Shown here piece by piece: positions 2,680 to 59,043 of a stretch of DNA of 59,940 bases. The first letter of the stretch is position 1; each line of letters opens with the position of its first letter. The translations under genes were made by a program, and so were the position numbers. This DNA comes from Patescibacteria group bacterium (GTDB lineage: Bacteria > Patescibacteriota > JABMPQ01 > JAQVVF01), in the NCBI GenBank assembly GCA_041662665.1, contig JBAZSC010000004.1:76464-136403 (forward strand), written 5' to 3'. The notes beneath the pieces are model-generated. The model worked only from the letters and a program-made list of their open reading frames with translations. It made no database searches and was not told where the DNA came from.

Positions 2680-3243
2680 ATGAACAAAAAAATTATTCAA
2701 GAAGTAAAAAATTTTGTTGAAACAGAATGCAAAAAACCTACCAGCAAATATGGCTATGAACCTTATCCATTCCATTTTGTGCCAGTTGTAAATTATGCCC
2801 AAAAATTAGCAAAAGAACTTGGAGGAGATCTTGAAATAGTTACAATTGCTAGCTATCTTCATGACATTGGCTCAATAATTTATGGTCGAGAAAATCACCA
2901 TCTTACAGGAGCCAAAATTGCTGAAAAAAAATTGCAAGAATTAAATTATCCAAAAGAAAAAATAGAAAAAGTTAAAAATTGCATCTTGCATCATCGAGGA
3001 TCAAAAAATTATCAACGATTAAGCATAGAAGAACAAATTGTTGTTGAAGCTGACTGCTTAAGCGCCTTTGACAACTTGTCAGGAATTTTAAAAGCTGCCT
3101 TTATTTGTGAGAATCTAGATCAAGGACAAGCAAAAATTTCAGCCAGAACAAAATTAGAAAATAAATGGAAACAATTAAAATTTAAAAATTCTAAAATAAT
3201 CATCAAACCAAAATTTGAAGCAGCAATGCTACTCTTAAAATAA
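2680..3243 (+). CDS. HD-domain metal-dependent phosphohydrolase
   Basis: LHDIGS HD motif, second His cluster CILHHRG. Confidence 0.8.
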   Translation: MNKKIIQEVKNFVETECKKPTSKYGYEPYPFHFVPVVNYAQKLAKELGGDLEIVTIASYLHDIGSIIYGRENHHLTGAKIAEKKLQELNYPKEKIEKVKNCILHHRGSKNYQRLSIEEQIVVEADCLSAFDNLSGILKAAFICENLDQGQAKISARTKLENKWKQLKFKNSKIIIKPKFEAAMLLLK

Positions 3244-3922: not shown

Positions 3923-3963
3923 TTCTGCATTTTCTGCGTTAACTTCTGCGTTTTTTCTGCGAT
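3923..3963. repeat. intergenic word repeat, TTCTGCG(T/A)T family (4 copies)
   Basis: ttctgcattttctgcgttaacttctgcgttttttctgcgatt; the same word recurs at ~25258, ~28900, ~32250. Confidence 0.8.
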
Positions 3964-3994
3964 TAAATTATTTAACAATTTAACAATAGAACAA

Positions 3995-5149
3995 TTGAGC
4001 AATACAACAATTATTGTCCACTACTCTGAAATCGGTCTTAAAGGCAGAAATAGGAATATCTTTGAAAACAAACTAATTAAAAACATAAAAGCCCACATTA
4101 ATCAATTGGGCTCTTTTAAACTTGTCCATTTGCACGATCGTATTTTGATTGAAATCTCTCAACTCTCACCTCTCATATCCCAAGCTCTTCAAAAAACATT
4201 CGGCATCGCCAATTTCGCAATTGCCAAAACAACAAAATTAGATCTAAACGAAATAAAAGAGCAAGTTTTAAACCTCGCCAAAACAAAAGAATTTACCACT
4301 TTTGCTATTCAAGCCAGTCGTTCCAACAAAAAGTTTCCGCTCACTTCTCAACAAATTAACGAACAAGTCGGTGGAGTAATTTTAGATAATTTAAAAAATA
4401 AAAAAGTAAAATTAAAAAATCCTAATTTAACTATTTATGTTGATATTTTAAAAGACCAAGCTCTAATTTATTCTGAAAAAATCAAAACTTTCGGTGGCTT
4501 ACCAACTGGCACAGCAGGCAATGTTATCTCTTTAATTTCCGGGGGCATTGATTCGCCCGTTGCTTCTTTTCAAATCATGAAACGAGGCTGTCAAATTATT
4601 TTTTGTCATTTCCATTCTTACCCGCAGACTTCAATTGAATCACAAGACCAAGTCAAAAAATTAGTTAGTATTTTAGATCAATATCAGCAAAATTCTAAAT
4701 TATACTTAATTCCAATCCTGGACATTCAAAAACAAATTGTTGCCAAATGCTCTGCCAAACTTCGCGTTGTTTTATACCGCAGAATGATGATGCGAATCGC
4801 CACTAAAATCGCAGAATTAGAAAATGCCAAAGCTTTAATTACCGGCGATTCAATCGGTCAAGTCGCTTCCCAAACTTTAGAAAATATTCAAGCAATTTCC
4901 AATGCTACAGACTTGCCAATTTTTCGCCCACTAGCTGGATTAGACAAAGAAGAAATAATAACTTATGCAAAAAAAATAGAAACTTACGAAACTTCAATCC
5001 AACCTTTTGGCGATTGCTGTTCTCTCTTTATTCCAGATAGTCCAGAAACAAAAGCAAAATTAGATGAAGTTTTAAAAAATGAACGAGAATTAGAAATTGA
5101 TAAATTAATTAATGATTCGTTTCAACAATTAGTTATTAAGCAATTTTAA
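3995..5149 (+). CDS. thiI: tRNA 4-thiouridine synthase ThiI (THUMP + PP-loop, no rhodanese domain)
   Basis: YSEIGLKGRNR N-terminus, PP-loop SGGIDSPVA; TTG start. Confidence 0.85.
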   Translation: MSNTTIIVHYSEIGLKGRNRNIFENKLIKNIKAHINQLGSFKLVHLHDRILIEISQLSPLISQALQKTFGIANFAIAKTTKLDLNEIKEQVLNLAKTKEFTTFAIQASRSNKKFPLTSQQINEQVGGVILDNLKNKKVKLKNPNLTIYVDILKDQALIYSEKIKTFGGLPTGTAGNVISLISGGIDSPVASFQIMKRGCQIIFCHFHSYPQTSIESQDQVKKLVSILDQYQQNSKLYLIPILDIQKQIVAKCSAKLRVVLYRRMMMRIATKIAELENAKALITGDSIGQVASQTLENIQAISNATDLPIFRPLAGLDKEEIITYAKKIETYETSIQPFGDCCSLFIPDSPETKAKLDEVLKNERELEIDKLINDSFQQLVIKQF

Positions 5150-7500: not shown

Positions 7501-7566
7501 AAGATTAAAACACAAATCCCAAATCCCAAATTCCAAACAAATTACAAATCACAAAATACAAAAAAA

Positions 7567-27480: not shown

Positions 27481-28866
27481 TTAACAACTGCTGACATACA
27501 TTTTTTGCTTTATTGCCTCGATTTCTTGTTTTAAGTTGTCATTCTTCTCTAATTCTTTCTTAACTTTTTCGTAAGCATGAATTGCTGTCGTATGATCTCG
27601 TCCACCTGTCTCATCGCCAATTGTTGGATAACTTTTATTTAACTCTCTTCTCATTAAAAACATCGCAATCTGTCTTGGCCAGGCAATATCTTTCCTTCTG
27701 TTCTTCGCCATTATATCAGAAGGATCAATATCATAGAATGAAGCAACTGCCTCAATTATTTCTTTAGAGCTTGTTGTCTGCTTGCTAGGCGCTGTAATAA
27801 TGTCTGTTAAAATTGTTTTGCAGCTTTCAAGCGTTGGAGTGCTGTTGCTAAGCTGGCTATGTGCAATAACTCGACTCAATGCGCCTTCAAGTTCTCTGAT
27901 ATTGCTTTGAACATTAGAAGCAATAAAATCTAAAACGTCTTCTGGAACATTATAAGCCTTCTCTCTGCATTTTGTTGATAAAATTGCTTTTCTTGTTTCT
28001 AAGTCAGGCGCGCTGACATCAGCTACCATTCCGCCTTCAAAACGCGAGACTAATCTTGCTTCAAGACCAGAAATTGCTTTTGGCGGTCTATCTGAAGTTA
28101 ATATTATTTGTTTATTATTCTGAAATAAACTGTTGTAGGCATGAAAAAACGCTTCTTGAGAACTAACTTTTCCAGCTAAAAATTGAATATCATCAATAAT
28201 TAAGACATCGCAATTGCGATAAAAATTTTGAAAATTGACAGTATTACTATCTTGATTTTTATTTCTAATAAAATTAATAAAATCATTAATGAATTTTTCA
28301 GAAGTTGCATAAACAATCTGAGTATCTTTATTCTCTTGCAGTATCCTATTGCCAATTGCTTGAACAAGGTGAGTTTTTCCAAGCCCAACACCGCCGTATA
28401 TGAAAAAAGGATTATAAATTTTACCAGGACTCTTGCAAATTGCTGTTGCTGCTGCCTTTGCTAATTCATTATTCGGACCGATGATGAAATTTTCAAAAAT
28501 ATATTTCGGGTTCAAGCCAGTTTGTATATCTTGGCTTGGCATTACATTTTGTTTTCTTTCGAATGATTCTGCTGGTCTTGCAACTGGTTTTAATGAATCA
28601 ACTGCCTGTGCTGTATTCTTTTTGTTTATCTCGTATGTAAGCTTAGTTACTCTTGAAGATGTAATATTCTGAAGCGCTCTAGCAATATCTTTGTGATATT
28701 TGTTTTGTAACCATTCTTTTGTAAAACCATTAGGCACGCCAATGACATATTCGCCATTAGAGATTAGTAGAACACTGGTTTCTTTAAACCAAGTCGTAAA
28801 ATTTGCCTTGCTCAAAGAGAGCTCAAGCTCTCCAAGCACTCCTTGCCAAATTTGATTATTGTCCAT
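27481..28866 (-). CDS. dnaA: chromosomal replication initiator DnaA
   Basis: Walker A GGVGLGKTHL; C-terminal DnaA signature IGDETGGRDHTTAIHA. Confidence 0.95.
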   Translation of the reverse strand: MDNNQIWQGVLGELELSLSKANFTTWFKETSVLLISNGEYVIGVPNGFTKEWLQNKYHKDIARALQNITSSRVTKLTYEINKKNTAQAVDSLKPVARPAESFERKQNVMPSQDIQTGLNPKYIFENFIIGPNNELAKAAATAICKSPGKIYNPFFIYGGVGLGKTHLVQAIGNRILQENKDTQIVYATSEKFINDFINFIRNKNQDSNTVNFQNFYRNCDVLIIDDIQFLAGKVSSQEAFFHAYNSLFQNNKQIILTSDRPPKAISGLEARLVSRFEGGMVADVSAPDLETRKAILSTKCREKAYNVPEDVLDFIASNVQSNIRELEGALSRVIAHSQLSNSTPTLESCKTILTDIITAPSKQTTSSKEIIEAVASFYDIDPSDIMAKNRRKDIAWPRQIAMFLMRRELNKSYPTIGDETGGRDHTTAIHAYEKVKKELEKNDNLKQEIEAIKQKMYVSSC

Positions 28867-29260
28867 AAAAAATAATGTTTATTTTTTATTTTTAAAAAAA
28901 ATCTGCATTTTTCTGCGTTAGCTTCTGCGTGTTTCTGCGTTAAAAAGCTATTTAACAGTTAGCTTATTAGAAAAAGATAGAAACAATCTAATTTAATTCT
29001 ATCTTGTTAATAAAGTATAGCTTCAATTAAACAAAACATTAAGGATTAATATGTTTACAACTTGTTGAGAACCTGTGGATAACTTAAGTTTATGCTATAT
29101 CTTAAATATGCTGTTGTCAAGAATTATGCTATAATAAAAACAAGGAAACAGAAAATAGAAAACAGTTTGTTTCGCAAGTTTCTGTTTTCTGTTTACTGTT
29201 TTCTTTTTTATGGACAAGAACTAAAAAATTTGCTATTCTCTATAAAATAATTTTAATTTT
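28867..29260. other. candidate oriC / dnaA upstream region
   Basis: Perfect DnaA box TGTGGATAA at 29074-29082, AT-rich tracts, TTCTGCG word repeats (28900-28942), extended -10 TGCTATAAT at 29127-29135. Confidence 0.45.
29144..29203. repeat. palindromic word repeat (AACAGAAAA family)
   Basis: ggaaacagaaaatagaaaacag ... ctgttttctgtttactgttttc; same family at 52402-52466. Confidence 0.75.
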
Positions 29261-35657: not shown

Positions 35658-35662
35658 ACGTT

Positions 35663-35732
35663 TAGTAATTAGTTAACTAGTAATTAGTAATTAGTGTCGG
35701 CACTAGTTACTAATTTCTAGTTACTAGTTACC
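35663..35732. repeat. palindromic word repeat (TAGTAAC/TAGTTAC family)
   Basis: tagtaattagttaactagtaattagtaattagtg tcgg cactagttactaatttctagttactagttacc; family recurs at ~43771, ~44385, ~55489, ~56690, ~57600. Confidence 0.8.
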
Positions 35733-35740
35733 GATTCACG

Positions 35741-38551: not shown

Positions 38552-38630
38552 ATAACATTTAACATTTAACTTTTAACAGTTAACTCGCTATTTATAGCGT
38601 TAATTGTTAAGTGTTAATAGTTAATTGTTT
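38552..38630. repeat. palindromic word repeat (TTAAC/GTTAA family)
   Basis: aacatttaacatttaacttttaacagttaactcgc tatttata gcgttaattgttaagtgttaatagttaattgtt. Confidence 0.75.
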
Positions 38631-39925: not shown

Positions 39926-41541
<1,616 letters not shown>

Positions 41542-41765
41542 TAAATATCTATAATTAATAAATTAATCATAGATCAACTAAAAAATTTAAAGTAAGCTTG
41601 TTAGCTCAAAATAAACGGAATTAACGTAAAACTCTTATCACTATTTAATTATCAAAGTGCGAGAATTATAGACTGATTCTTTTTAATTTTTGAAGTTAAA
41701 AAATATCAAGCTACAATTTTCATAGCTATTTTTACAGATTTACTTGTAAGTAATTTAGTACTTAA

Positions 41766-43763: not shown

Positions 43764-43770
43764 AGTTGTG

Positions 43771-43835
43771 TTAACTAGTAATTAGTAACTAGTAACTAGT
43801 CGTCGTTCTAGTTACTAATTACTGATTACTAGTTT
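43771..43835. repeat. palindromic word repeat (TAGTAAC family)
   Basis: ttaactagtaattagtaactagtaactagt cgtcgt tctagttactaattactgattactag. Confidence 0.75.
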
Positions 43836-43907
43836 CTCCATTCTTCACGTAAAAGCCACCAATTAATGGTGGCCTTTATTTATTTTGAATCTTATTAAGA
43901 TTTAAGA

Positions 43908-48079: not shown

Positions 48080-48186
48080 TATAAATTACAAATTCCAAAT
48101 CCCAAACAAAACACAAATTACAAATTACAACAATATTTTGTGTATTGTGATTTGTAATTTGTTTGGAATTTGGTATTTGGGATTTA
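48080..48186. repeat. long imperfect palindrome of CCAAAT/ACAAAT words in the smc/rlmE divergent spacer
   Basis: ataaattacaaattccaaatcccaaacaaaacacaaattacaaattacaa ... gtgatttgtaatttgtttggaatttggtatttgggattt. Confidence 0.8.
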
Positions 48187-48242
48187 TTATTTTAGTCTAT
48201 CAAATTTTTTTATTCTTGACAAATTGAGTATTCTGATTAATA

Positions 48243-51572: not shown

Positions 51573-51579
51573 AAAAAAA

Positions 51580-51692
51580 TTTTCAATTTACAATTCTCAA
51601 TTTTCAATAAATTATCAATGAACAATTTTCAATTAGTTACGACTTTGAAAACTGAAAATTGATAATTTATTGAAAATTGGAAACTGGTCATT
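51580..51692. repeat. long palindromic word repeat (TTGAAAAT/ATTTTCAA family)
   Basis: TTTTCAATAAATTATCAAT pairs perfectly with ATTGATAATTTATTGAAAA. Confidence 0.8.
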
Positions 51693-51698
51693 GAAAAT

Positions 51699-52394
51699 TT
51701 ATTTCTTCCACTCTTCCCTCTCAATCGCATTCTTCGCAGCATTTACTTGTGCTTCTTGTTTTGAATCTCCTTCACCTTCACCAAGTAATTTTTTTTCTAA
51801 ATATACGCCAATTTTAAATTTTCTTGCATGATCTGGTCCCCATTCTTTCAAAACTTGATATGTTGGAGTAACCTTTAAAGCATCTTGGATCTCTTCTTGT
51901 AATCTTGATTTTGGATCAATATATAATTTTTCGTCTAAAATCTTTTTTAATTCAGCAATAATATGTTTTTCAATGAAATCTTTTGCTACATCCCAGCCTT
52001 GATCTAAATAAATTGCGCCAATTACAGCTTCAAATGCATTAGCCAAAATAACATCTCTAGCTTTGCCAATATCTTTTGCTTCTCCTCTAGATAAGTATAA
52101 AAAATCATCATAACCTAATTCTTTCGCGTGTTTTGAAATCATGTTTGTATTAACAAGCGCAGATCTCCAGTTTGTTAAATCTCCTTCTGGATTTGTAAAA
52201 TTATTATACAAATGCTGAGTCACAACCAATTCAAGAACTGCATCTCCCAAAAATTCTAATCTTTCATTATTATCAAGTGGAAAGCTTGTATTTTCATTTA
52301 AATAAGAACGATGAACTAATGCTTGGTTAAGCAGTTTAATATTATTGAACTTTATTCCGATATTTTTCTCTAGTTGTGTAAAATCTTTGTCCAT
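51699..52394 (-). CDS. rnc: ribonuclease III
   Basis: NERLEFLGDAVLE signature, C-terminal dsRBD. Confidence 0.9.
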   Translation of the reverse strand: MDKDFTQLEKNIGIKFNNIKLLNQALVHRSYLNENTSFPLDNNERLEFLGDAVLELVVTQHLYNNFTNPEGDLTNWRSALVNTNMISKHAKELGYDDFLYLSRGEAKDIGKARDVILANAFEAVIGAIYLDQGWDVAKDFIEKHIIAELKKILDEKLYIDPKSRLQEEIQDALKVTPTYQVLKEWGPDHARKFKIGVYLEKKLLGEGEGDSKQEAQVNAAKNAIEREEWKK

Positions 52395-52401
52395 ACGTTT
52401 T

Positions 52402-52500
52402 AGAAAACAGAAAATAGAAAATAGAAAAGAGTAGATAATTAACTGTTTTCTGTTTCCTGTTTTCTCTTTATAACTTTATAAACTTTAAAAACTTTATAAC
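52402..52500. repeat. palindromic AACAGAAAA words followed by CTTTATAA words
   Basis: agaaaacagaaaatagaaaatagaaaagag ... ctgttttctgtttcctgttttctc, then tttataactttataaactttaaaaactttataac (also seen at 7590-7610). Confidence 0.75.
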
Positions 52501-52959: not shown

Positions 52960-53058
52960 ATAATACGAATGACGATACGAATAATGCGAATGATACGAAT
53001 TACGAATAATTAATTCAGCGTATATCAGCGTTAGAAATCAGCGTTTAATCAGCGCTTG
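52960..53058. repeat. word repeats ACGAAT then CAGCGTT
   Basis: atacgaatgacgatacgaataatgcgaatgatacgaattacgaat ... cagcgtatatcagcgttagaaatcagcgtttaatcagcgc. Confidence 0.75.
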
Positions 53059-53060
53059 TA

Positions 53061-53297
53061 TTATTTTTGTTGTGCTTGTTGTTGTTTTTTCTTATCTTTC
53101 TTTGCTTTCTTGGCTTTTTTTGCTTCAATATCTAAAACTTGTCTGTTATTATAATTTCCACATGCTAAACAAACAGTATGAGGTAAAATTGGCTTGCTGC
53201 ATTTTGGACATTTTGCTAATTTTGTTTGCTTTAGAGCGTGATGTGATCTTCTTTGTCTAGAAGCTGCTTTGGTGTGTTTCTTTTTTGGAACTGGCAT
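53061..53297 (-). CDS. rpmF: 50S ribosomal protein L32 with Lys-rich C-terminal tail
   Basis: MPVPKKKHTKAASRQRRSHH start, CPKC...CLAC zinc ribbon. Confidence 0.9.
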   Translation of the reverse strand: MPVPKKKHTKAASRQRRSHHALKQTKLAKCPKCSKPILPHTVCLACGNYNNRQVLDIEAKKAKKAKKDKKKQQQAQQK

Positions 53298-53433
53298 AGA
53301 CGTGAATTATAAATAACTAAATTAAAATTTCTTACTAATATCATTTTAGCTCATTTTTTCATTCTTGACAAGGGATTTTGATTTACGGTGTTTAATTTTA
53401 CAAAATTCCGCAAGATTATGCACAAGCAATTAT

Positions 53434-53465
53434 TTGACTTCTAGCAAGGGGGGGGGGGGTAGAAT
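53434..53465 (+). promoter_or_regulatory. promoter-like TTGACT / TAGAAT pair separated by a 20-nt spacer containing a G12 homopolymer
   Basis: TTGACT 53434-53439, G12 53448-53459, TAGAAT 53460-53465. Confidence 0.45.
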
Positions 53466-53495
53466 AAAGATAAATTAACAATTTAATACAAAAAT

Positions 53496-53909
53496 ATGGC
53501 AAATGAAACAGGACCAAGCGCAGAAGAAATGGGATTAAAACAAGAAGAAACAGAGATTGGCACTGAACAACGACCAACCGATGCTGCTATTGATCAAAAA
53601 GCAGATGCAATATTGGCACTTAGAGACGCCCAAGAAGAAGCAAGCGTAAGAGCTTATAATTCAAAAATGGCAAGAGAACTAGCACAAGATCCAGAACTAG
53701 CACTGCAAGAAGAAAATGAATGGACAACCATTGAAAAAACAAGATATCAACACGAAAAAGATTTTATAGATGGTTTGGCAAAAGAAGGACCAAAAGATTA
53801 TCTAAAAGGAATTCTGGAAGAACGAGGACTGGCAGGTTACACGCAAGAAGATTTCAAAAAGCTTCATGATTCAGTAACCGCTAAAGAACAGCAAGGTGGT
53901 GCAAAATAA
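53496..53909 (+). CDS. acidic orphan protein
   Basis: E/D/Q-rich 137 aa; terminator ATCCCG-CACAA-CGGGAT then T-run at ~53925-53950. Confidence 0.5.
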   Translation: MANETGPSAEEMGLKQEETEIGTEQRPTDAAIDQKADAILALRDAQEEASVRAYNSKMARELAQDPELALQEENEWTTIEKTRYQHEKDFIDGLAKEGPKDYLKGILEERGLAGYTQEDFKKLHDSVTAKEQQGGAK

Positions 53910-54000
53910 TTACATAAAAATCCCGCACAAACGGGATTTTTTAATATCATAATATCCGTAATATTCGTAATTTCCGAATTTCACAATTTCCGAATATCCG

Positions 54001-54573
54001 TCAATTCACTTCAACCTTTTTCAAAACCGCAGGCAAACGTTTAAAAGCATTCTCGAGATCGCGATAAAGACTAGGTTGATGCAAAGCTGCAGCTGGATGA
54101 TAAATCGGATAAAAATATAATTTTCCTAAATTCTTGATTTCGCGTCTAAAAACTCGTCCTTGATTTTTAGAAATTGTGCCAATTGGAATAAATCTAGCCA
54201 TTGCATGACGGCCTAATGGAATAATAATTTTAGGCTTAATAATCATTATTTGCTGTTCCAAATATGGCCAGCAAGCAGCAACTTCGTCTGGCAGAGGATC
54301 TCGATTATTTGGTGGTCTATGTTTTACTACATTTGCAATATAAACATCTTCGCGTTTTAAAGAAGCTAAAGCCAATAATTTAGACAGTAATTGTCCAGCT
54401 TGGCCAACAAAAGGTCTGCCTAATTCGTCTTCTTTCGCACCCGGACCTTCACCAATAAACATAATTTTAGCATTTTGATTGCCCTCGCCTAGTACTGGAT
54501 TCTTCGCTAGCTTATACAAATCACATTTTTGACAATTTTTAACTTGTTTAGCAATTTGTTCTAAAGTTTGCAT
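54001..54573 (-). CDS. family-4 uracil-DNA glycosylase
   Basis: CQKCDL, GEGPGAKEDELGRPFVGQAGQLL, HPAAAL motifs; start moved to M21. Confidence 0.85.
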   Translation of the reverse strand: MQTLEQIAKQVKNCQKCDLYKLAKNPVLGEGNQNAKIMFIGEGPGAKEDELGRPFVGQAGQLLSKLLALASLKREDVYIANVVKHRPPNNRDPLPDEVAACWPYLEQQIMIIKPKIIIPLGRHAMARFIPIGTISKNQGRVFRREIKNLGKLYFYPIYHPAAALHQPSLYRDLENAFKRLPAVLKKVEVN

Positions 54574-54701
54574 AAAATTTAAATTTAAACTACTAAGAGG
54601 CTCAGCCTTTTCTAAAACCAAATATTCGAACAATTAAGATTAGTTTCCTTAAAGATAGCGGTCTAATAATTTTAGTAAAAGGCTGAGCCTCTTTGACAAT
54701 T

Positions 54702-55484: not shown

Positions 55485-55547
55485 AAAATTAGTAATTAGT
55501 AATAAGTAACTAGTAACTAGGGCGACGTAGTCGATGCTAGTTACTAA

Positions 55548-56087
55548 TTACTTTTTACTAGTTATCTTATTGATTATTTTATTAATTTGCTTAACTAATT
55601 CTTTTCTATTGCCGCTATTATCAACCACAATTTTTTGTTCACGTATTGGTTCAAATCTAGATTTGATAATATGATATGTTTTCATTGTTACTTCGCTTTC
55701 TTTTGCTTTAAATCTCGCTTCAATTCTTTTCTCTGTAATCTCTTCATCGCATTTCACATAAATAATATACAATTTTGTCTTAAACAATTCAGCCAGTTTT
55801 TTTGCTTGATCAACATATGCTTTCTTGAAAAATGTCGCATTCAAAATAACACTTTGGCCATTCATCAATCTTTTTGCACCATTAGAAAACAAAGTATTAT
55901 AAACTGAGCTCTTAACTTCGCGAGCCCAAAAATTTTTATTCTTCAATTCATCAATAATTTTCTTAGTTGGCTTTAATTGATCTGATTCTATCATCTGCTC
56001 CTTTAATTTCGCTCTCAACATTTCGCCAACAGTACTTTTGCCAACGCCAGGAAGGCCACAAATCAAAATCAACATAACAATATTCAA
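55548..56087 (-). CDS. P-loop kinase / AAA-type ATP-binding protein
   Basis: ICGLPGVGKST Walker A near the N-terminus; TTG start at 56087 or ATG at 56075. Confidence 0.7.
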   Translation of the reverse strand: MNIVMLILICGLPGVGKSTVGEMLRAKLKEQMIESDQLKPTKKIIDELKNKNFWAREVKSSVYNTLFSNGAKRLMNGQSVILNATFFKKAYVDQAKKLAELFKTKLYIIYVKCDEEITEKRIEARFKAKESEVTMKTYHIIKSRFEPIREQKIVVDNSGNRKELVKQINKIINKITSKK

Positions 56088-56100
56088 TATTTAATATTCA

Positions 56101-56188
56101 ATATCCTAATATCTCAATATCCTAATATCTCAATATCCTAATATCTCAATATCCTAATATCTCAATATCCTAATATCTCAATATCTCG
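56101..56188. repeat. perfect tandem repeat, 16-nt unit ATATCCTAATATCTCA x5 plus a partial copy
   Basis: Units at 56101, 56117, 56133, 56149, 56165; degenerate copies at 56079-56100. Confidence 0.9.
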
Positions 56189-56679: not shown

Positions 56680-56801
56680 GAAAATAAGTTAATTAGTAAA
56701 CTAGTTACTAGTAACTAGTTACCAGTAACAATCTTATTATATACAAAATAATCAAAAAAAACAAAAAAACCAGCTAAAAAACTGGTATATAATAAAGAAC
56801 G

Positions 56802-58914: not shown

Positions 58915-59043
58915 AATTTAATTTAAATAATATCTCTAATTCTATCAGAAAATCTTTCAAAGTCAAGATTTTACTTTGTCCGCCGATTTATCCACCGAAG
59001 CTAAAGCGAAGGTGGAAGCTCAGAAGAGCGAAGGCGGAAAATA

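Follow-up and report, generated by a model that had tools for sequence, protein, structure and literature searches.

We identify a run of 12 G's in the spacer of a putative promoter that precedes a 137-aa orphan gene in a 59,940-nt stretch of DNA, all of which was analysed and which is hereafter called the window. We consider it moderately probable that this element is a sigma-70-type promoter of the orphan gene with a slippage-prone G run in its spacer. Read at ttatTTGACTtctagcaaGGGGGGGGGGGGTAGAATaaagataaattaacaatttaatacaaaaatATG, the spacer anatomy consists of a TTGACT hexamer, the sequence tctagcaa, the G12 run, and a TAGAAT hexamer, giving a distance of 20 nt between the -35 and -10 boxes; the next ATG, at 53496, opens the 137-aa ORF, which ends at 53909. 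The architecture is predicted to be of the porA type, with a tract length deep in the OFF range in this genome. The features of the locus are given below, where L005 and L038 are the two populations with relatives of the orphan gene, and L001, L003, and L043 are contigs that cross or enter the tract.

53061 to 53297, minus strand: rpmF, encoding ribosomal protein L32, the left neighbour (Pfam PF01783, E 1.6e-19).
53343 to 53371, minus strand: divergent rpmF promoter, TTGTCA-N17-TAAAAT, from the promoter scan, with no part in the proposed switch.
53381 to 54000, strand not assigned: accessory segment of ~620 bp comprising the putative promoter, G tract, orphan gene, terminator, and AATTTCCG repeats; the closest reference species lack it.
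53434 to 53439, plus strand: -35 box TTGACT of the putative orphan gene promoter, read directly; invariant in the window, L005, and L038.
53440 to 53447, plus strand: non-repetitive part of the spacer, tctagcaa; tctagca in L005 and tttaaca in L038.
53448 to 53459, plus strand: G12 homopolymer, the slippage-prone part of the spacer; G12 in L001 and L003, G13-14 in L043, G7 in L005, and GGGGGAGGG in L038.
53460 to 53465, plus strand: -10 box TAGAAT; the homologous site in both L005 and L038 is TAAACT.
53466 to 53495, plus strand: predicted 5' leader, short, unstructured, and without a Shine-Dalgarno sequence, with transcription expected to start near 53472.
53496 to 53909, plus strand: orphan gene, from the ORF and an AlphaFold2 model; 137 aa, acidic, all-helical, with ~28 disordered residues at the N-terminus.
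53916 to 53942, strand not assigned: terminator hairpin, an A-run, a 10-bp stem, and a T-run (-11.8 kcal/mol, z -5.7).
54001 to 54633, minus strand: family-4-type uracil-DNA glycosylase (UDG) gene, the convergent right neighbour (Pfam PF03167, E 1.7e-36).

The length of the tract is far beyond chance. It is the only run of more than five G's in the window, which has a G+C content of 32% and in which G runs of 1, 2, 3, 4, and 5 occur 5863, 941, 76, 5, and 2 times, respectively, and a run of 12 occurs once; the maximum is 6 for runs of C and 9 for runs of A or T. From base composition, 2e-6 runs of 12 G's and 1.4e-4 runs of 12 C's are expected per window. Counting both strands, there are 99 TTGACW sites and 750 good TAnnnT boxes, and the chance expectation for a tract with both boxes at usable distances is roughly 1e-4 to 1e-2. 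The first-pass annotation had placed the G12 run, the two hexamers, and the 20-nt spacer at coordinates that all proved exact on re-reading, and its description of the run as extraordinary is borne out by the absence of any other G run above five and by the expectation of 2e-6. With 12 units (possibly 13), the tract is also above the length of at least ~8 at which homopolymers slip frequently.

Across about 195 kb of compared loci, we observe only one other G or C run of at least 8, a G10 run at 4065 to 4074 of L021 (JBAYIR010000008.1, an AT-rich Patescibacteria MAG). This run is intergenic, located between nusB and a 232-aa ORF, and it sits within a ccccgttaaataa / ttatttaacgggg inverted repeat with no obvious -35 or -10 boxes around it. 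The nusB gene of L021 encodes a 290-aa protein, twice the usual length.

The stretch is present in two groundwater metagenome runs (X1 and X2), and G12 is the consensus in independent datasets. A Logan contig from run X1 with a depth of 14 (L001) crosses the tract with G12, identical flanks, and 0 differences from the window, and a JGI contig (L003) has G12 as well. A second JGI contig (L043), which runs from the left into the tract, has 14 G's, or 13 and a miscalled T, and one Logan contig from X2 has an extra single non-T base past the 12th G. Within one JGI metagenome, G12 and G13-14 are both found, each on a contig end with dephasing errors. The true tract length is 12, give or take 1-2.

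That the tract is an artefact, arising from a poly-G read-tail error or from a chimeric join at a low-complexity k-mer, is very improbable. This explanation would draw on the behaviour of the low-coverage contigs, which break or degrade at or beside the tract: L002 (ENA) starts at TAGAAT, L004 (Logan, X2) starts one G earlier, a further X2 contig terminates inside the tract, and L003 and L043 deteriorate past it. However, the clean contig of depth 14 spans the tract, the flanks are syntenic with L005 and L038, and each of these relatives has a G run at the homologous site, so that the run is reproducible, recurs in relatives, and sits in syntenic DNA. The breaks are technical because sequencing reads dephase after a long homopolymer. 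L003, which comes from the right, has 0/1994 mismatches on the near side versus 19/98 beyond the tract, with 14 of the 19 copying the neighbouring base, and L043 continues after its 13-14 G's into an A-rich sequence that loosely tracks the true one. Dephasing past a real homopolymer accounts for these breaks, and we reject them as a sign of length heterogeneity, with the errors in L003 and L043 assigned to Illumina dephasing.

The locus illustrates that a genuine 12-G tract can fragment short-read assemblies and leave error-laden contig ends. In JGI 3300014208, the dephased, error-laden read tails of L003 (1 to 98) and L043 (1 to 96) are deposited as assembled sequence, and the junk end of L003 even has a gene call, a 42-aa "gene" at 1 to 129. 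Given dephasing at the tract, short-read "variants" of its length need strict controls to be trusted when they come out of Illumina metagenomes; a published homopolymer-tract analysis gives the same general caution (PMC8808543).

Relatives of the orphan gene are found in two other populations only, L005 (77% identity) and L038 (46% identity), the latter of which surfaced solely via an exhaustive profile search. A search seeded with the L038 protein gave no additional relatives, the GTDB species representatives and the viral contigs contained none, and scanning metagenome DNA yielded nothing beyond the JGI contig already known. The order rpmF, orphan gene, UDG is common to the window, L005, and L038, and the three promoter cores compare as follows.

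Window: TTGACT tctagcaa G12 TAGAAT, spacer of 20 nt.
L005: TTGACT tctagca G7 TAAACT, spacer of 14 nt.
L038: TTGACT tttaaca GGGGGAGGG TAAACT, spacer of 16 nt.

When the three lineages are aligned, the -35 box is invariant, the -10 box reads TA.A.T, and the sole sizeable indel in the core falls within the G run, and the start codon follows the -10 box at 30-31 nt in 3/3 lineages. The first-pass annotation had raised the question of whether relatives have a tract at the same site, and a G-rich run is indeed found at the homologous site in both L005 and L038, although in L038 it is an interrupted 9-base run (GGGGGAGGG). Tract length varies between these relatives (G12, G7, and GGGGGAGGG) within conserved flanks. 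The three natural alleles, with spacers of 14, 16, and 20 nt between near-identical boxes, constitute a ready-made series for comparison.

The spacing norm of the organism can be estimated from the window itself. We counted promoter pairs consisting of TTGACW followed by a TAnnnT box matching at least 5/6 positions, which gave 19 pairs with spacers of 16 nt (6 pairs), 17 nt (5 pairs), and 18 to 22 nt (8 pairs combined); the candidate is the only pair with a 20-nt spacer. The trigger-factor gene is preceded by the identical hexamers at a different distance, TTGACT-N16-TAGAAT (TTGACT at 58966). This promoter and the peak at 16-17 nt indicate that the organism uses ordinary sigma-70-type promoters with 16-17-nt spacers. 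The promoter scan called TTGACT-N16-TAAACT in L038 and left the L005 and window versions uncalled, since their spacers fall outside 16-18 nt, and it detected no other plus-strand promoter-like site between the rpmF promoter and the orphan ATG. At 16-18 nt from the -10 box, no alternative -35 hexamer is present in the window (ACTTCT, CTTCTA, and GACTTC) or in L005. Taken with the conserved hexamers, these comparisons suggest that the tract very probably lies in the spacer of a real promoter of the downstream gene. What the first-pass annotation had called a promoter-like element is upheld by the retention of the hexamers in three lineages, the 16-nt spacer of L038, and the 16-17-nt norm. Its calculation that the loss of three G's would give 17 nt is likewise correct (G9), with the addition that G8 would give 16 nt, which is equally common and is the spacing used by L038.

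The remainder of the putative transcription unit is compact. The predicted leader has a fold energy of -0.1 kcal/mol (z +0.9), and a Shine-Dalgarno sequence is also missing from many genes of the window, rpmF included. Behind the ORF, the terminator hairpin is matched by 0/200 shuffles and is kept in L005 and L038; it is bidirectional in form and lies between the convergent orphan and UDG genes. With so strong a terminator behind the ORF, the promoter, ORF, and terminator would form a self-contained unit. The only ORF that crosses the tract is an antisense ORF of 53 aa (53416 to 53577), which we rejected because it would lose its frame in L005, whose tract region is shorter by 6 nt; the tract thus does not lie in a conserved reading frame as an intragenic frameshift switch would. 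The G run was also ruled out as a Shine-Dalgarno sequence, being 36 nt from the start codon.

A different role for the G-rich run, as a conserved cis element whose length is tolerated and whose flanking hexamers are unused, is improbable. Candidates for such a role are a binding site for a regulator, a structural element beside the -10 box, and a portion of a leader initiated further upstream. Consistent with this, the run abuts the -10-like box in 3/3 lineages despite the diverged intergenic DNA of L038, and L038 has a second promoter-like site upstream (TTGGCA-N16-TAAAAT) that would put the run inside a leader. However, this upstream site is not conserved in the window, and TTGACT, which does not vary, is separated from the -10 box of L038 by exactly 16 nt. 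A binding site, moreover, is not expected to bear 7 versus 12 units, and there is neither a significant fold around the tract (z -0.76) nor a partner sequence for a structural element. A role in translation fits poorly as well, as the run is too distant from the start codon for a Shine-Dalgarno sequence and the sole nearby start in L038 gives a 2-codon ORF.

The tract is located in a 198-bp divergent intergenic region. To its left, on the minus strand, are rpmF, nusB, and the ORF upstream of them (51699 to 52394), which aligns closely with the nusB-adjacent ORF of L007, L008, and L021; to the right of the orphan gene are UDG, an inositol monophosphatase gene, and a kinase-like gene. In L007 and L008, the two closest reference species (L32 88% and 82% identical), UDG adjoins rpmF, and neither the orphan gene nor the tract is found there (around 2860 to 3000). 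Their similarity to the window ends after cttgRcaagggattttg, just past the -35 region of rpmF. Given this absence, the promoter, tract, gene, and terminator are an accessory segment. A 24-nt direct repeat, TGGCAAGGGATTTTGATTTAYAAT (334 to 357 and 952 to 975), flanks the segment in L005 and duplicates the -35 region of rpmF; after the segment comes another orphan gene, of 141 aa and unrelated to the first (1051 to 1476). The interval separating UDG from the rpmF promoter resembles a small hotspot of gene gain and loss. The rpmF promoter itself is kept as TTGCCA-N17-TAGAAT or TAAAAT in L005, L038, and L007.

Several repeats are found in and around this locus. A perfect 17-nt inverted repeat, AAGAGGCTCAGCCTTTT / AAAAGGCTGAGCCTCTT, occupies 54595 to 54611 and 54677 to 54693, with 65 nt between its arms, where the inositol-monophosphatase gene ends and the UDG gene starts. 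Repeat blocks at 53022 to 53058 (TTAATCAGCGT, downstream of rpmF) and 53944 to 53982 (AATTTCCG, downstream of the orphan terminator) match several other contigs of the same metagenomes, one of which, 14.7 kb long, has three such matches, so that the units must be dispersed in this genome or in close relatives. More generally, nearly all intergenic regions of the window have their own AT-rich tandem unit of 7-16 nt (for example, TAGTAAC, TTCTGCGTT, TTTGGAA, AATTTTC, or AATATCTCAATATCCT x6.9). Such units, which vary by spacer and in some cases recur, are found at 3929 to 4012, 7512 to 7566, 28911 to 28942, 35658 to 35740, 38553 to 38629, 43764 to 43860, 48080 to 48200, 51573 to 51698, 52395 to 52500, 55487 to 55520, 56079 to 56185, and 56694 to 56729. 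The tandem blocks are often inverted pairs that form hairpins of 26-45 bp (-23 to -40 kcal/mol, z -3.7 to -8.6), and they may be terminators or genome-wide repeat elements.

The wider content of the window includes a lone 16S gene, two tRNAs, and genes for DnaA, PBP1, SMC, a Mur ligase, and trigger factor, and the closest reference genomes are labelled as Patescibacteria group or Candidatus Saccharibacteria MAGs. After the dnaA gene (27481 to 28866, minus strand), 394 bp of intergenic DNA containing TTCTGCGTT-type repeats precede a PBP1-type gene. The GC skew is strongly negative upstream of this intergenic region and flattens there, and the region from 27481 to 29260 is probably the replication origin. 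The 16S rRNA gene (39926 to 41545) stands alone, with no 23S or 5S match in the 60-kb window, and it spans 1620 nt relative to a 1533-position model, such that an insertion is possible. In CPR, rRNA genes are commonly unlinked and commonly contain insertions.

The product of the orphan gene belongs to no family in Pfam, PHROG, PADLOC, or NCBIfam; a weak match to GajB (E 0.001), obtained for one homologue only, was dismissed. It was described at first pass as a highly acidic orphan, and this description holds, with a pI of 4.6, 31 D/E versus 18 K/R residues, no family, and relatives in two populations. The AlphaFold2 model is helical (mean pLDDT 75.8) and has no fold match in the PDB. The protein contains no signal peptide or membrane segment and has no recognisable link to the surface or to host interaction; it does not look like a surface protein, which weakens the switch reading. 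Between the window and L038, the orphan is 46% identical, versus 86% for UDG and 84% for L32, and these values mark it as an accessory gene that is evolving much faster than its neighbours. By analogy, an accessory and fast-evolving gene has the usual profile of a contingency gene. The ORF is nonetheless intact in 3/3 lineages, and dN/dS between the window and L005 is 0.54 (p=0.03 against neutrality). An intact ORF and this dN/dS, measured between two lineages with off-length spacers, indicate that the gene has been somewhat constrained and hence expressed on at least some occasions.

If the tract acts as proposed, slipped-strand mispairing at replication would add or remove G's, and the changed G count would alter both the distance and the helical phase between TTGACT and TAGAAT. 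RNA polymerase would make good use of the promoter only at about 16-18 nt. With G12 (possibly 13), the spacer would be 20-21 nt and the orphan gene would be silent or weakly expressed, and G8-G10 would restore 16-18 nt. We infer that transcription starts at this promoter and that tract length sets expression. Under the same reading, length change would recur within the population often enough to make the locus a contingency switch, possibly an adaptive one, rather than the product of rare evolutionary on and off events. The predicted ON range is G8-10 for the window, which has G12, and G9-11 for L005, which has G7. Both close lineages are 2-4 single-unit slips off the ON range and are therefore far from the ON/OFF boundary at which a working switch would sit. 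A drifting or silenced promoter would explain this slip distance no less well than a tuned switch. In addition, the G7 tract of L005 is weakly mutable, which counts against a switch, and the window has only one such tract in 60 kb, so that nothing points to a set of contingency loci across the genome.

The main competing explanation is neutral slippage with promoter decay, in which drift has taken the G run of the window and L005 lineages to lengths that no longer function, and the orphan gene has been silenced and is heading for loss without adaptive, reversible switching. The promoter would once have been real and would still be so in L038. We regard this as rather unlikely, though it accounts for several observations: the spacers of both close lineages (14 and 20 nt) are several steps from the optimum, G12 is stable as the consensus over datasets, the gene is under relaxed constraint (dN/dS 0.54, with 46% identity versus 84-86% for its neighbours), and the segment is dispensable, being missing from L007 and L008. 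On the other hand, decay would not by itself preserve an intact ORF in all three lineages, a dN/dS below 1 (p=0.03), or the promoter boxes, leader, and terminator, which are still conserved. A pure G12 run in DNA of 32% GC is, moreover, highly mutable, and its fixed length would need selection or a very recent origin. We thus retain the promoter with a slippage-prone spacer as the preferred reading.

If the tract switches, slipped-strand phase variation would reach beyond cultured pathogens and commensals to an uncultured environmental lineage with a reduced genome. It would then be relevant to how expression varies in lineages with very few regulators, and the orphan would be a protein that is beneficial to express only sometimes. 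A broader proposal, which we put forward as a tentative possibility, is that ultra-small groundwater Patescibacteria (CPR) use simple-sequence contingency loci of the sort found in mucosal pathogens and mycoplasmas and that a hypermutable poly-G promoter dial here gates a fast-evolving accessory protein. The orphan might then be an acidic interaction or mimic protein directed against host or phage, and a clonal episymbiont population would contain pre-existing ON and OFF subpopulations. We infer host association of the organism solely from its Patescibacteria-type identity. If true, this would be the first such switch described in CPR: in the literature searched, no paper combines "phase-variable" with "Candidate Phyla Radiation", and the available portions of the literature joining phase variation and Saccharibacteria contain no apparent description of such a tract.

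The closest known counterpart is the porA promoter of Neisseria meningitidis, in which 11, 10, and 9 G's give high, intermediate, and low expression, respectively (PMC3639595). As in porA, the -35 and -10 boxes are separated by a spacer containing about a dozen consecutive G's, whose number sets the spacer length, and tract length differs, among meningococcal strains in the one case and among lineages in the other. For porA, switching, dependence on mismatch repair, and antibody selection have been shown experimentally, whereas the present locus is a candidate read from sequence. The two also differ in product, with a surface antigen in porA versus a cytoplasmic-looking, acidic protein here, and in organism, with a mucosal pathogen versus a groundwater bacterium of the Patescibacteria type. 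Furthermore, the present allele is 2-4 units, rather than 1, off the predicted ON range.

Other promoter-spacer repeat switches include the poly-C tracts of N. meningitidis opc and Bordetella fim, the poly-A tract of Mycoplasma hyorhinis vlp, and the TA repeats of Haemophilus influenzae hifA/B. In each of these, a simple repeat in or beside the core promoter shifts the -35/-10 spacing via slipped-strand mispairing. All encode surface structures of host-associated bacteria with demonstrated switching, and several need an activator, such as BvgA in Bordetella; by comparison, no surface-structure or activator context is visible at the present locus. Homopolymer tracts are a well-known general device in prokaryotes, and intragenic examples include the poly-G/C genes of Campylobacter and Helicobacter and the poly-A tract of L. 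monocytogenes inlA (PMC2831843). The candidate described here would share with these the use of a hypermutable homopolymer as a reversible on/off device, but theirs lie inside reading frames and act through frameshifts, whereas the present tract ends 36 nt before the start codon. In its length, its position, and its variation between lineages, three criteria that can be read at the sequence level, the locus resembles the porA type and offers a testable candidate.
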